DNA from: a phage
Sequence record: PZ509022.1
DNA length: 64,000 nucleotides
Strand: one strand, 5' to 3'
Below, piece after piece: positions 7,200-45,554 of the stretch; positions within the stretch are counted from its first letter, which is position 1; each line of letters starts with the position of its first letter. The translations under genes were made by a program, and so were the position numbers. The notes beneath the pieces are model-generated. The model did no database searches. It was not told where the DNA came from and was given only the letters and a program-made list of their open reading frames with translations.

Positions 7200-8882
7200 T
7201 TAAACCATTACAGTAAATCGACCAACTTTCTTCATTTGAAGATGCTGACCGTATGCTTGTGGGTCATGGTCTCTATGCGAAATAACAAAAACATTAGTAT
7301 TTTTTAAACTATCTAAAATAGTTGAAATAGCTTTTACACCTTCAACGTCGGTCGCTGAATCAAAAACTTCATCAAGAATTAGTGTGTTTATTTTAACACC
7401 TGAAACTTTTTCAGCAATATCACGCCAAGTAAATAAAATAGCAATATCAATTCGTGCTTTTTCACCTTGACTGAATGAAGCATAACTAAAATCTTCACGA
7501 CCACGGGATTTAATTGTCTCATTAAATTCTTCATCTAATGTAAACACATAATCCGCTTCCATTATTTTAAGATAATAGTTAATCTGCTTATTAAATAATG
7601 GAATGTACTTTTTAATAATAGCACCTTTAATACCAGAATCTTTGAGCATATCAGTCAAAATTCCTCGGTGGTATTTTTCCATTACTAAATTAGTTTTTGT
7701 CTTAACAATTTTATCAAGTTCTTCTTGAAGCAGTGCTATTTCATCAGCATGGTCAATAAACTCAGAAGATGCTTTTTCTATAGCCGCTTTAACTTTTTTA
7801 GCTTTATCTACTGCTGCGATCAGAGATTGCTTTTTATTGCGAATATCATTTGCCAACGACTGCTGAGTTTTAATATTATCTCGGTATTCATCAACAAGAA
7901 CTTTTAAATTATCACGATGTGTTGAAAGCTGTTCAAACGAATGCGTGCATTCAGAAACTTTATCTTTAATTTTAGAAACAACTTTATCACCGGAACTCAA
8001 TTGTGACAAACAGGTTGGACATAATCCACCTTCGTGATACATATTAATGACTTTATTATACGAGTCAATTTTTGATTTAATTAAAACTGCTTCTTGACCG
8101 ATTTTATTAAATGCATCAGTCGGGTCTTCATCTAAAACAATATTAACTAATCTTTCATTAGCTTCTTCTATTTCCGATTTTAGCGTTCTAGCTTCTTTTG
8201 CCAAATCATCATACATATTTTGCAGACGAGTAAGGTTGTCACCAGTTAATTTTTTCTGGCGTTCAACATTATCATTATATATTTTAATTTGTTGGATAAT
8301 ACTATCTTTTTTAACATCAAGCACTTGGTTTTGTGAATTTAATTCACGTATTAGTGCTTTATTAAGCTTATCCATTTCAGCTAATGTTCCTACCTCAAGC
8401 AGGTCTTCCACAAGCTTTCTTCGTGCAGGGGTCGACAAACCCATGAAAGGGGTATACCCTGCTGTACCAAGGACAACAATCTGCTTGAAACTGGCATATG
8501 ACATTCCGATAAGCTGTTCAAATTCTGCTTGGAAATCTTTACTGCTGGCAGATTCATTAAGACGTGTACCGTTAACGGTGATTTCAAAAACGTTCGGTTT
8601 TTGTCCTCTTTTGATATAGTACTTTTTCTCATCATATTCCATCCACAGTTCAACTAAAAGTTCTTTCTTATTTGTGCTGTTTATTAATTGACCTTTCTTT
8701 ACATCACGAAATGGCTTGCCAAAAAGCCCAAATGTGATGGCTTCTAACATAGTAGACTTACCACCGCCATTTCGGCCAGTAATAAGAGTTTTTTGAACCT
8801 TATCTAATTGAATGTCAATCCCATTTTGACCAACTGACATTATATTTTTATATTTTACTCTATTAAGTTTAAAATTCTTCAC
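7200..8882 (-). CDS. 46: recombination endonuclease subunit gp46 (Rad50/SbcC-like, 560 aa)
   Basis: N-terminal P-loop GRNGGGKST, long coiled coil, C-terminal signature/D-loop. Confidence 0.93.
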   Translation of the reverse strand: MKNFKLNRVKYKNIMSVGQNGIDIQLDKVQKTLITGRNGGGKSTMLEAITFGLFGKPFRDVKKGQLINSTNKKELLVELWMEYDEKKYYIKRGQKPNVFEITVNGTRLNESASSKDFQAEFEQLIGMSYASFKQIVVLGTAGYTPFMGLSTPARRKLVEDLLEVGTLAEMDKLNKALIRELNSQNQVLDVKKDSIIQQIKIYNDNVERQKKLTGDNLTRLQNMYDDLAKEARTLKSEIEEANERLVNIVLDEDPTDAFNKIGQEAVLIKSKIDSYNKVINMYHEGGLCPTCLSQLSSGDKVVSKIKDKVSECTHSFEQLSTHRDNLKVLVDEYRDNIKTQQSLANDIRNKKQSLIAAVDKAKKVKAAIEKASSEFIDHADEIALLQEELDKIVKTKTNLVMEKYHRGILTDMLKDSGIKGAIIKKYIPLFNKQINYYLKIMEADYVFTLDEEFNETIKSRGREDFSYASFSQGEKARIDIAILFTWRDIAEKVSGVKINTLILDEVFDSATDVEGVKAISTILDSLKNTNVFVISHRDHDPQAYGQHLQMKKVGRFTVMV

Positions 8883-42841: not shown

Positions 42842-43405
42842 TTATTTACCTAGTTTACTTATTATAGCTTCTGCAGCAGCTTTTAGCTTAGATGCAGTGT
42901 TAATACGATTTTTAATTTCAGTATACGCATCGCCAAGAACATCAAGGCTATCAGAATAAACACTTACACTATTGCGTTCGCTATTTGAAATAGAACCTTT
43001 AGTTTTGCGGTCAAAATCGGTGTACACGTCTTGAAGATCGCGGGCTGCCTTCTTTGCATCATCCAATGCATCAAGAGCTTTATTCAAAGCATTAACGTAT
43101 TTTTTAGTGTCGAACATATTCTTAGAAATTTTAACAGGTGCGCGTTCAGGAGTAGCTAACACAGATTTAGGAACCTGAGCGCCAGATGCCAATTTCTTAG
43201 AAATTTTGAAAAATGCTTTATTGAATTTATTTTCTTGACTCATTGTAAAAGAACTATTATCGATGTTGTACATTTCAATAGCTTTAGCTTTCCACTTAAG
43301 AAAATCGCCGCGGTCTTTTGGGTCCAATTGGAAGAATACTTTAGTAAGATCTGCTTCAGATGGTAATTTTGCTGCTTCGGTTAAAAATTCGGCATAGGTT
43401 TTCAT
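42842..43405 (-). CDS. internal-protein-like, N-terminal capsid-targeting-like sequence MKTYAEFLTEA (187 aa)
   Basis: N-terminus resembles the T4 IP targeting peptide as I recall it (MKTYQEFIAEA); Glu-Ala junction consistent with prohead protease processing. Confidence 0.5.
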   Translation of the reverse strand: MKTYAEFLTEAAKLPSEADLTKVFFQLDPKDRGDFLKWKAKAIEMYNIDNSSFTMSQENKFNKAFFKISKKLASGAQVPKSVLATPERAPVKISKNMFDTKKYVNALNKALDALDDAKKAARDLQDVYTDFDRKTKGSISNSERNSVSVYSDSLDVLGDAYTEIKNRINTASKLKAAAEAIISKLGK

Positions 43406-43496
43406 TTAAAATCCTTGAAATAATTTATCGGTTGGTTATTAATTATTTATTACTTTGTTACTATCCGTAACAGCGTTATCCGAGTGATTCAAACTA

Positions 43497-43530
43497 AAAA
43501 GCCCCAACCTTTCGGTCGGGGCTAAGCCTT
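43497..43530 (-). terminator. rho-independent terminator closing the tRNA/stable-RNA unit
   Basis: rc gccccgaccgaaaggttggggc followed by TTTTTAGTTT. Confidence 0.6.
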
Positions 43531-43834
43531 GCGGCAACCTTGTCGGGGTTCCACCTGCTAAGGCAAGTGTTTGTACGAAACGCCGGGATTCGAACCCGGT
43601 TATTAAGCAGTTGACGCTACTCAATATTTTTAAAAGGCCATATCTCGACCATATCCGAACGTTCCGTCAAAAACGCTACTCGGCTTACGGCAAAGATATT
43701 TCCTCGAATCGATAATTCGGTGCGCCGTTTCTGCTGTGATGTAAGGGGATATTAACAAATCGTAAAGATTTGTTAAGACCAGTCCTTACTCAGGGAACAT
43801 CAGTCCGACGACTTACCGGTAGCGACCCGGTTTC
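43531..43834 (-). ncRNA. candidate stable small RNA(s) distal to the tRNA island (analogous to T4 RNA C/D)
   Basis: about 300 nt without credible ORF, locally GC-richer, T-arm-like ccgggTTCGAATcccgg element on minus strand, bounded by a terminator; boundaries approximate. Confidence 0.35.
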
Positions 43835-44185
43835 TTAATATTCTTTTAAAGCATCAATCTGTTCACGGCGTTTACGCCATAAATCAATTGCTTCATACGC
43901 AGATTCAGCATTTCGAATTAGACGGCATTTATATAAAGACTCGTGATTTTGATATTGCGTAGATAACGTAATTTTATCTAAAAGGTCTTTACGTTCAAAG
44001 TATTCGTAACCATCTAAGCCAAATGAACGATTTTTGAGAAATTGCCAATGACCATATTCGTTTTCGACATAAACATAATCCGCGTGTTGATAAAGCAAAT
44101 TAATTACACGTTCAGAAATAACAGTGTCATTGTGATTAAAATAAAATGTTAAATCATGAACTACTAAATAAACATTACCTTTCAT
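43835..44185 (-). CDS. hypothetical protein (116 aa) between tRNA-Arg and the small-RNA region
   Basis: ORF track. Confidence 0.5.
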   Translation of the reverse strand: MKGNVYLVVHDLTFYFNHNDTVISERVINLLYQHADYVYVENEYGHWQFLKNRSFGLDGYEYFERKDLLDKITLSTQYQNHESLYKCRLIRNAESAYEAIDLWRKRREQIDALKEY

Positions 44186-44201
44186 ATTTTCCTCACTTAA
44201 T

Positions 44202-44277
44202 TGGTCGAGGCAGTAGGGATCGAACCTACGACCTAGGACTTAGAAGGTCCTTGCTCTTCCTTCTGAGCTATGCCCCG
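44202..44277 (-). tRNA. tRNA-Arg (anticodon UCU)
   Basis: hand-folded cloverleaf; AC stem AGGAC/GTCCT, loop CTTCTAA; CCA encoded. Confidence 0.8.
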
Positions 44278-44281
44278 TAAT

Positions 44282-44357
44282 TGGGGTGACCGATGGGAGT
44301 CGAACCCATGACTACGAGAATCACAATCTCGAGTTCTACCAACTGAACTACGGCCAC
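44282..44357 (-). tRNA. tRNA-His (anticodon GUG)
   Basis: hand-folded; loop TTGTGAT; T-loop TTCGACT; discriminator C. Confidence 0.7.
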
Positions 44358-44471
44358 ATTAATACCTACTCCAACAATCAAGATGTCTTCACACGAAATT
44401 AAGAGAAGAGTGATCAGTTCAACCCCGATAATCGCGTCAAGTAGATATTAATGTGACAATTGTCACAAATT

Positions 44472-44900: not shown

Positions 44901-44908
44901 TATTTATA
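44901..44908 (-). promoter_or_regulatory. possible late promoter (rc TATAAATA) between segB and tRNA-Ser
   Basis: plus tatttata; only 4 nt from tRNA 5' end, so uncertain. Confidence 0.25.
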
Positions 44909-45554
44909 TATTGTTAATTTGATTTAGAATTCTTTTTGCTTGAGTATGACTTACACCAATATGCTTAGCATATTTAGATAATTCACCACGCTTAGAAAAA
45001 TCATATAATTTAGAAATTTCTATTCTTCTTTTTCTTTCATCCGCCGAAACTTTTGCTTCGTTTGCTTTTGCTATTTTACGTTTAGCTTCTTGAGAGTGAG
45101 TTTTACCAGCAAAGCCATTCTTCATTAATCCATTTGAAGACCATCCTTTTAATTTTCCGTTAGAATGTGCCTTTTTAACACCCAATGAAATTAATTCGCG
45201 TTGCTGGTCTGTCATAGGATAATTATTTATATGATCCCATCCACCTTCACCACCAAGTTTTAAATTATACACATCTGGTCTATTTAAAAACTCTTCCGTG
45301 ACAATATTTTTCTCGGCTTCAAGCATAGATTCTTTATCATCAAAATACTCTAATATTTCTTTAGAAAAATTTTCTATACCATACTTATCTTGGGCTCTTT
45401 TTAATAATTTACCAGAACCCATATATCCATCATCTAAATTTTCGGTAGAATGCACACCAATATAAATTTTATTATTAATTTTATTTGTTATTTTATAAAG
45501 ATAAAAATGCATATCAGTCCCTAATAAAGAACTGAGCGTCTCACGACGAGTCAT
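44904..45554 (-). CDS. segB: GIY-YIG homing endonuclease SegB (216 aa) inside the tRNA island
   Basis: FYLYKITNKINNKIYIGVH GIY-YIG motif; NUMOD3-like GKTHSQEAKRKIAKA. Confidence 0.85.
   Translation of the reverse strand: MTRRETLSSLLGTDMHFYLYKITNKINNKIYIGVHSTENLDDGYMGSGKLLKRAQDKYGIENFSKEILEYFDDKESMLEAEKNIVTEEFLNRPDVYNLKLGGEGGWDHINNYPMTDQQRELISLGVKKAHSNGKLKGWSSNGLMKNGFAGKTHSQEAKRKIAKANEAKVSADERKRRIEISKLYDFSKRGELSKYAKHIGVSHTQAKRILNQINNI

Follow-up and report, generated by a model that had tools for sequence, protein, structure and literature searches.

Orthologues of the T4 stable RNAs rnaC and rnaD in a Tequatrovirus genome, and a predicted tRNA-like fold for rnaC

A stretch of 64,000 nucleotides (nt) of phage DNA (sequence record PZ509022.1), hereafter the window, was analysed around an interval at positions 43531-43834 that follows a cluster of transfer RNA (tRNA) genes. 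On the minus strand, positions 43838-43574 almost certainly carry orthologues of rnaD (species 2 RNA) and rnaC (species 1 RNA), the small stable non-coding RNAs of phage T4. Judging from covariation among its homologues, rnaC very probably folds as a four-way junction in which an acceptor stem is stacked on a T-arm, a GG dinucleotide is docked on the T-loop, and a long arm and a 10-bp hairpin make up the remainder. For the preferred explanation as a whole we estimate a probability of about 0.85, its functional part being much less certain. The region is an already known feature, since the window aligns with the annotated T4 genes; the comparative structure has no entry in Rfam, and no description of it was found in the searchable literature.

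Identity of the region and predicted fold of rnaC

The window derives from a Tequatrovirus, that is, a T4-like phage: a 501-nt query matched 762 phage records, mostly of Escherichia and Shigella phages, at 90-99% identity. In the T4 annotation (NC_000866), rnaD (71053-71171, 119 nt) and rnaC (70908-71046, 139 nt) are located directly after tRNA-Arg. The window aligned with both almost base for base, including about 85 nt beyond them, through the terminator, and the order, strand, trailer and terminator were the same in the two phages. Only two of the 139 positions of rnaC differed from T4, and rnaD was 88.3% identical. Both RNAs are labelled at the matching place in the records of phages Aplg8, RB5 and RB6, and rnaC occupies, as in T4, the distal end of the tRNA region, where it is followed by a conserved trailer and a terminator.

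A counterpart of the two small stable RNAs of T4 had been suggested in an earlier note made from the letters of the window, and the alignment to the annotated genes bears this suggestion out. Every element of its description of the interval was confirmed as well. Apart from mechanical open reading frames (ORFs) of 34-61 aa, the interval is ORF-free, its G+C content (47.4%) is above that of the window (34.8%), and it is closed by a strong terminator with a 10-bp G+C-rich stem and a T-run (43523-43500, minus strand). ARAGORN called neither a tRNA nor a transfer-messenger RNA (tmRNA) in the region, in line with the statement that no full cloverleaf was present, and structure was apparent from fold z-scores against dinucleotide shuffles (-4.05 for rnaC, -3.16 for rnaD and -3.70 for the trailer with the terminator). 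The proposed limits need adjustment, as the feature begins about 4 nt outside them, at about 43838, and the last 45 nt or so belong to the 3' trailer of the precursor. Likewise, the T-arm-like element (CCGGG-UUCGAAU-CCCGG, 43599-43583, minus strand) is present, but it is not an isolated fragment and belongs to a complete module of acceptor stem, T-arm and elbow.

A covariance-model search and comparative folding with related phages, both proposed in the note, supported the assignment of rnaC. A covariance model (R1) built in this analysis scored 163.6 bits on T4 rnaC and matched rnaC in the window at 43713-43571 with 162.4 bits (E = 4e-33). To evaluate covariation, 30 distinct sequences were aligned to this model, and 500 shuffles served as a control. 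Pairing was maintained in 96.2% of cells and double changes occurred in 30 of 47 pairs, values that were reached by none of the 500 shuffles; when the partners were slid by one to three columns, 37-44% of cells were paired. RNAalifold applied to an independent MAFFT alignment of 13 rnaC sequences returned 40 pairs, 22 of them with compensatory changes.

The substitutions behind these figures can be followed helix by helix. Pair 3 of the acceptor stem switches between genera, being A-U in nine and G-C in 20 of the 30 sequences, and in phage PM2 the U·U mismatches of this stem are turned into U-A while its first pair goes from C-G to A-U. The middle pair of the T-stem is U-A in 18 sequences, G-C in nine and A-U in one. 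Compensatory changes were found in eight of the nine counted pairs of the 10-bp hairpin, which is separated from the CCU strand by an A-rich linker, and in 16 of the 17 pairs of the long arm; in Melville-type homologues, the sequence of this arm is entirely replaced and its pairing kept. The encoded 3' end reads UACA in the T4 type and in the window, and UCCA in Marfavirus-type homologues and in PM2.

Two tertiary contacts are well indicated, rather than proven, by the same alignments. The apical loop of the long arm and the loop of the 10-bp hairpin (UUGACG and CGUCAA) would pair with each other, so that no anticodon would be exposed. This pairing was found in 99.4% of cells over the 30 sequences, and the chance of exact complementarity for one given loop pair is about 2e-4. 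Both 6-nt loops were invariant in 24 of the 30 sequences, though their stems change. Five Marfavirus-type sequences carry UUGGCG and CGCCAA, a compensated change of A-U into G-C, and in PM2 two A-U pairs were lost jointly from both loops. The duplex energies were -5.5 and -7.6 kcal/mol for matched loops as against -0.4 and -4.9 kcal/mol for mixed ones. The other contact involves the GG dinucleotide at 43639-43638, which appears to behave like G18/G19 of tRNA in contacting the T-loop. The corresponding alignment columns 80/128 are G·U in 26 and C-G in four of the 30 sequences, and columns 81/129 are G-C in all 30. Four phages of two genera have CG in place of GG, and exactly these have a T-loop of the form UGCAxxC instead of one starting with UUC.

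Distribution of rnaC and organization of rnaD

Homologues of rnaC were collected by BLAST and then with model R1 in 29 loci, with scores of 90-164 bits. They belong to Tequatrovirus, Gaprivervirus, Kagamiyamavirus, Moonvirus, Karamvirus, Gelderlandvirus, Winklervirus, Kanagawavirus, Mosugukvirus and Marfavirus, in addition to phages without a genus in their record. Outside Tequatrovirus, rnaC usually lies exactly between two tRNA genes, whose gap it fills in EcS1, Moon, Melville, VPA32, LC53 and PM2; the neighbours are tRNA-Phe and tRNA-Trp in EcS1, and tRNA-Trp and tRNA-Gly in Melville and VPA32. This exact fit implies a release by the tRNA-processing machinery. VR7 keeps rnaC with only one tRNA gene annotated in the surrounding stretch of about 4 kb. 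The RNA thus occurs in at least ten genera and apparently in phages only, among them at least one that has very few tRNA genes close by.

Two phages display a different arrangement at the place of rnaC. In JS10 (locus L120, 1001-1230), rnaD is joined straight to the conserved trailer, and in EAWsc9 (L123, 601-835) two tandem copies of a hairpin of about 26 nt (GAGCGGAYGGUGCRUCCGGUA) replace rnaC.

Searches for more distant relatives added little. The conserved T-arm/acceptor motif of rnaC had no match among 185,579 bacterial and archaeal genomes, and a BLAST search started from PM2 retrieved no additional divergent relatives. A metagenome scan gave 20 loci, two of them real and both of the Marfavirus type, with no further independent event of loop covariation. 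A loose pattern (TTCGAGGA...GGCGTTYCGT) applied to IMG/VR selected 91 loci, nearly all of them chance matches, and no new one passed a stricter pattern. In the tRNA cluster of Aeromonas phage 44RR2.8t, a distant T4-like phage, no rnaC homologue was detected with filters off, the only signals being tRNA cross-matches of about 12 bits. Hence rnaC, in the form captured by the model, does not seem to extend beyond the T4-like phages that infect enterobacteria. The 44RR2.8t cluster (L153) has unannotated gaps of 345 nt (7201-7545) and 278 nt (7983-8260) by tRNA-Trp, tRNA-Thr and tRNA-Pro; they gave no match to the rnaC model and could hold unrelated small RNAs.

For rnaD, about 730 phage records had a match covering at least 80% of its length, and it was found only in Tequatrovirus, Gaprivervirus and Dhakavirus. 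This RNA is not tRNA-like; its predicted fold consists of a 5' hairpin and a long imperfect hairpin with an invariant base and an exchangeable tip. Its first 44 nt and its last 19 nt do not vary, and the window shares the T4 type of central hairpin (alignment A5). On this alignment, RNAalifold returned the 5' hairpin with five pairs, identical in all nine sequences. The terminal helix, in which GUCGUCG pairs with CGGCG(C)AC and leaves a short 3' tail, is also invariant in the nine homologues, and one internal pair switches from U-A to A-U among them. After the terminal helix, the window has CCG and T4 has CCA.

The central hairpin occurs in three unrelated versions on the invariant scaffold, the T2 type and the JS10 type being distinct from type A of the window, and these cassettes are mixed across Tequatrovirus, Gaprivervirus and Dhakavirus irrespective of genus. 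When phage BW1 was evolved on strain ECOR34, the same single-nucleotide polymorphism (SNP) in rnaD arose in three independent lines (PMC12685909). By our own coordinate arithmetic, it falls close to nt 73 of the BW1 rnaD, within the domain of the central hairpin, so that the reported host-adaptation SNP appears to map to the very domain that is swapped between phages. A sigma-70-like site within rnaD (43776-43749) was taken as a chance occurrence, 12 such sites having been found for 11.2 expected.

Locus organization, expression and processing

The features of the region are listed in Table 1. The minus strand is the coding direction of the genes in this part of the window. ARAGORN located ten tRNA genes at 45798-44202 (minus strand), after which a 116-aa ORF (44185-43835), the ORF-free stretch and the terminator follow on the same strand. 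The 116-aa product corresponds to phrog_3355 and had no Pfam match. In T4, tRNA-Arg is 1 nt away from rnaD, whereas in the window this ORF occupies the gap. The earlier note was thus correct in placing a protein gene between tRNA-Arg and the RNAs, and an ORF at this place is common in Tequatrovirus, the same arrangement being found for instance in T2 and G4507. The TAA stop codon of the 116-aa ORF (43837-43835) overlaps the first bases of the rnaD homology.

Table 1. Features of the rnaD-rnaC region of the window (positions of the 64,000-nt stretch; structural elements are predictions)
Feature	Position	Strand	Remarks
rnaD orthologue	43719..43838	minus	about 120 nt; alignment to annotated T4 rnaD
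rnaD 5' hairpin, ACCGG / loop GUCGCUA / CCGGU	43815..43831	minus	invariant in 9/9 aligned homologues
rnaD hypervariable central hairpin, type A cassette	43740..43790	minus	alignment A5
Spacer GAAUUA between rnaD and rnaC	43713..43718	minus	alignment to T4
First annotated rnaC base, U43712	43712	minus	read as position -1 of predicted RNase P site; acceptor-stem register
rnaC orthologue, putative tRNA-shaped four-way junction	43574..43712	minus	139 nt by T4 annotation; model R1
rnaC acceptor stem, 5' strand CGAUUCG	43705..43711	minus	pairs with CGUUUCG 43582-43576; two central U·U mismatches
rnaC acceptor stem, 3' strand CGUUUCG, and discriminator-like U43575	43575..43582	minus	followed by ACAA, not CCA
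rnaC T-arm CCGGG/UUCGAAU/CCCGG	43583..43599	minus	adjoins acceptor 3' strand directly, an arrangement shared with tRNA
GG dinucleotide just 5' of CCU strand	43638..43639	minus	candidate counterpart of tRNA G18/G19, contact with T-loop U43593/C43592
rnaC long arm, three helical segments	43640..43701	minus	enclosed by AGG/CCU helix
Invariant AGG/CCU helix	AGG 43704-43702, CCU 43637-43635	minus	opens into 62-nt long arm
Putative kissing loop 1, UUGACG, apical loop of long arm	43665..43670	minus	exact complement of loop 2
Putative kissing loop 2, CGUCAA, loop of 10-bp hairpin	43611..43616	minus	exact complement of loop 1
rnaC 10-bp hairpin between A-rich linker and T-arm	43601..43626	minus	anticodon-arm or variable-arm position
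Conserved 3' trailer of precursor	43527..43573	minus	7-bp hairpin at 43569-43552
Intrinsic terminator	43495..43523	minus	10 pairs, 7 G-C, GAAA loop, T-run (consensus scan)

The two RNAs of T4 were sequenced in the 1970s, and their dimeric precursor is cut by RNase P. In the window, rnaD and rnaC share a unit with the second tRNA sub-cluster, with the terminator at its end, and a late-promoter consensus (TATAAATA) is located at 44908 (minus strand), at the 3' end of a SegB-like ORF and just upstream of tRNA-Ser. A transcript running from tRNA-Ser to tRNA-Arg and further through the 116-aa ORF, rnaD and rnaC would end at the terminator (43523-43495). RNase P would cut between U43712 and C43711, because rnaC offers it a substrate made of acceptor stem, T-arm and elbow, and would thereby release rnaC and leave rnaD with a short tail. 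Exonucleases would trim this tail back to the terminal helix of rnaD, and host nucleases would remove the 3' trailer. The location of rnaC among tRNA genes implies that the same processing enzymes are involved. In T4, RNAC and RNAD were reported as late RNAs and checked by northern blot in a 2022 transcriptome study, which called their functions yet unknown (PMC9697503). From the near-identity to T4, a discrete stable rnaC of about 140 nt may be expected in the window phage.

The trailer is nearly identical in T4, T2, VR7 and DCP80. Part of it (43527-43545) is a direct repeat of the left arm (CCCCGAC..AAGGUUG) of the terminator (43500-43523, minus strand), and this upstream copy could pair with the right arm (GGUUGGGG). 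Mismatches are found in the proximal arm of VR7, DCP80 and JS10, where the upstream copy is intact, and an alternative long-range terminator hairpin is therefore possible.

Several further elements of the locus vary among relatives. The tRNA cluster of the window is interrupted by a 216-aa ORF (44904-45554, minus strand) resembling GIY-YIG/NUMOD3 homing endonucleases (SegB-like), just as the T4 cluster is split by segB. The 114-nt spacer between tRNA-His and tRNA-Asn (44358-44471, minus strand) folds well (z = -3.5), with a small 5' hairpin and a long-range stem; it has no tRNA or Rfam match, and G4507 and Aplg8 have an equally long gap. This spacer may give rise to one more structured RNA within the cluster. 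Some Gapriverviruses have a different ORF, of 79 aa, where the window has the 116-aa ORF. Just downstream of the rnaC terminator, the window carries a 187-aa ORF (phrog_2280; 42842-43405, minus strand) with a weak, sub-threshold cytochrome b562-like match, at a place where T4 has only non-coding DNA. Relatives have other ORFs there, sometimes followed by a second terminator. Two-piece BLAST matches of about 560 bp in relatives were considered as an insertion inside the RNAs; this was rejected, as they correspond to an extra ORF and a second terminator beyond the first one.

Possible function, rival explanations and comparison with known RNAs

The genes rnaC and rnaD are textbook features of T4 and their presence in a T4-like genome is ordinary; their role has been open for about fifty years. 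The comparison yields a concrete and testable fold for rnaC, in which the upper half resembles tRNA, an elbow is in contact, and two loops are complementary to each other. As the most likely function, though only tentatively, we propose that rnaC is a trans-acting mimic of tRNA that cannot be decoded, and that rnaD is an accessory RNA of importance only in some hosts; the convergent SNP of BW1 speaks for such a host-dependent role of rnaD. The molecule would be an L-shaped tRNA look-alike whose decoding side is shut by the loop-loop helix, and it would occupy tRNA-binding sites and read no codon. Candidate targets, by which it would be taken up or for which it would compete, are host factors that bind the half of tRNA made of acceptor stem, T-arm and elbow: tRNA-processing and tRNA-modification enzymes, the ribosome, and tRNA-directed defence toxins. 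A bolder version, which we regard as speculative and rather improbable, holds that rnaC is a purpose-built tRNA decoy whose loop-loop helix imitates a codon-anticodon pair, that the rnaD cassette is under host-specific arms-race selection, and that both form a joint RNA-based module for host range or counter-defence in T4-like phages. As a decoy, rnaC would retain all that host enzymes, the ribosome or tRNA-directed defence toxins read on the acceptor, T-arm and elbow side of a tRNA, and it could engage or sequester a host factor while never decoding.

Several observations weigh against the preferred explanation. Because alignments A4 and A6 were produced by fitting to the model, they are biased towards its structure. 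The covariation of the kissing loops comes from one clade, the five Marfavirus-type sequences, with the partial two-sided loss in PM2, and that of the elbow from four sequences of two genera, which may reflect a single event. T4-type rnaC encodes UACA at its end and not CCA. JS10 and EAWsc9 lack rnaC though they kept rnaD, so that rnaC is dispensable in some lineages, and T4 deletions in the tRNA region that remove rnaC and rnaD grow on laboratory strains. No functional study of rnaC or species 1 RNA was found in the searchable literature, and papers from 2010, 2022 and 2025 all call the function of rnaC and rnaD unknown (including PMC9697503 and PMC12685909).

Four other explanations were considered, and all of them fit the pattern of conservation less well than a tRNA mimic acting in trans. 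Both RNAs could be functionless by-products of the processing of a tRNA operon, or remnants of decayed tRNA genes, that persist only through tight folding. Their position within or at the end of tRNA clusters, the tRNA-type acceptor stem and T-arm of rnaC, which would fit a descent from a tRNA gene, its loss in JS10 and EAWsc9, and the lack of a known function all agree with this; yet decay would not keep 96% pairing with 30 compensated positions across at least ten genera, nor leave two 6-nt loops and the linker invariant while the surrounding helices are rewritten. The retention of rnaC in VR7 next to a single annotated tRNA gene and the convergent adaptive SNP in rnaD are also difficult to reconcile with inertness, which we consider unlikely. 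Slightly less probable still is a region acting only in cis, as a structured 3' untranslated region or processing platform by which the upstream tRNAs and the message of the 116-aa ORF are shielded from 3' exonucleases or guided in their maturation. In the window, it does lie between the last ORF and the terminator, and the trailer and terminator are conserved alongside. In most other genera, however, rnaC is flanked on either side by tRNAs in the middle of a cluster and adjoins neither an ORF nor a terminator, the T4 RNAs are discrete stable species according to the annotation and northern blot (PMC9697503), and a plain protective hairpin needs no T-loop, elbow contact or loop-loop helix.

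A third explanation, in which the 3'-terminal 94 nt of rnaC form a genuine, unusually long tRNA active in translation, such as tRNA-Lys(UUU) or a tRNA-Sec-like species, was suggested by an ARAGORN call of a 94-nt tRNA-Lys(ttt) in G4507, by an Rfam tRNA-Sec-like alignment at 43575-43667, and by an alternative acceptor helix that can form in 83.8% of cells. The G4507 call coincides with an A-run that is 1 nt shorter in the linker, and ARAGORN made no such call in the window, EcS1, LC53, F48 or PM2. The Rfam score (16.6 bits, E = 3.3) is far under the gathering threshold of 47 bits, and the alternative acceptor helix is devoid of covariation, is equalled by 500 of 500 shuffles and has one pair broken in 19 of the 30 sequences, whereas the competing helices (the 5'/3' acceptor stem and P5) covary. 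As the supposed anticodon loop also sits in the length-variable linker, a functional long tRNA is very improbable. Finally, that the stretch encodes small proteins can practically be dismissed. The mechanical ORFs exist on both strands, and many deposited records have coding sequence (CDS) features here, but the substitutions between genera fall in base-paired couples with no codon pattern, the annotated CDSs vary in strand and frame among records, and the curated T4 record has RNAs at this place.

Hundreds of deposited phage genomes mislabel the locus, some with a spurious tRNA-Lys, tRNA-Phe or tRNA-Met and others with hypothetical proteins. Thus the 3' part of rnaC is labelled 'tRNA-Lys', and 'hypothetical protein' CDSs of one strand or the other cover rnaC or rnaD (examples are loci L003, 1670-1763; L022, 1516-1653; L006, 1120-1305; L114, 1942-2115; and others). 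Only a few records (T4, Aplg8, RB5, RB6 and Kha5h) label the RNAs themselves.

Among known RNAs, none in Rfam 15 corresponds to rnaC or rnaD. Over the 64-kb window, only the ten tRNAs reached the gathering score, and a permissive search of 43300-44300 (E up to 10) returned nothing credible. The predicted rnaC fold can nevertheless be compared with several tRNA-related molecules. It shares with canonical tRNAs, and especially with class II tRNAs and their long variable arm, a 7-bp acceptor stem adjoining a 5-bp T-stem with a UUCRANY loop, the G53-C61 closing pair and UUCRA loop of canonical tRNA, a putative, covarying contact between GG and the T-loop, a four-way junction and a site among tRNA genes. 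It departs from them in having no D-arm of normal size, no anticodon arm of 5 bp with a 7-nt loop and no exposed anticodon; the D and anticodon arms of the cloverleaf are replaced by an arm of 62 nt and by the 10-bp hairpin, whose loop has 6 nt. With its two acceptor U·U mismatches, its length of 139 nt and, in the T4 type, no encoded CCA, rnaC was recognised neither by ARAGORN nor by Rfam RF00005.

The tRNA-like domain of tmRNA offers a parallel, as rnaC too keeps the acceptor/T-arm half and has its decoding half replaced, with tertiary pairings. Unlike tmRNA, rnaC has no tag reading frame and no G3:U70 pair and measures about 140 nt instead of about 360; ARAGORN found no tmRNA, and Rfam gave no tmRNA match in the region. 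The bacterial Y-RNA-like YrlA RNAs, some of which are phage-encoded, also carry a tRNA-like module with a T-arm and an acceptor-like part. In rnaC, however, the Ro/Rsr-binding stem is missing, the tRNA-like ends would be the true 5' and 3' ends of the RNA, and no Rfam match to this group was obtained. A viral RNA imitating the shape of tRNA is also the common trait with the 3' tRNA-like structures of plant viruses and with the PKI domain of the dicistrovirus intergenic-region internal ribosome entry site, in which an anticodon stem-loop is pre-paired to a codon in a manner reminiscent of the loop-loop helix of rnaC. Those viral tRNA mimics are cis elements of RNA-virus genomes, whereas rnaC would be a free small RNA of a DNA phage, closed by a loop-loop helix of 6 bp.

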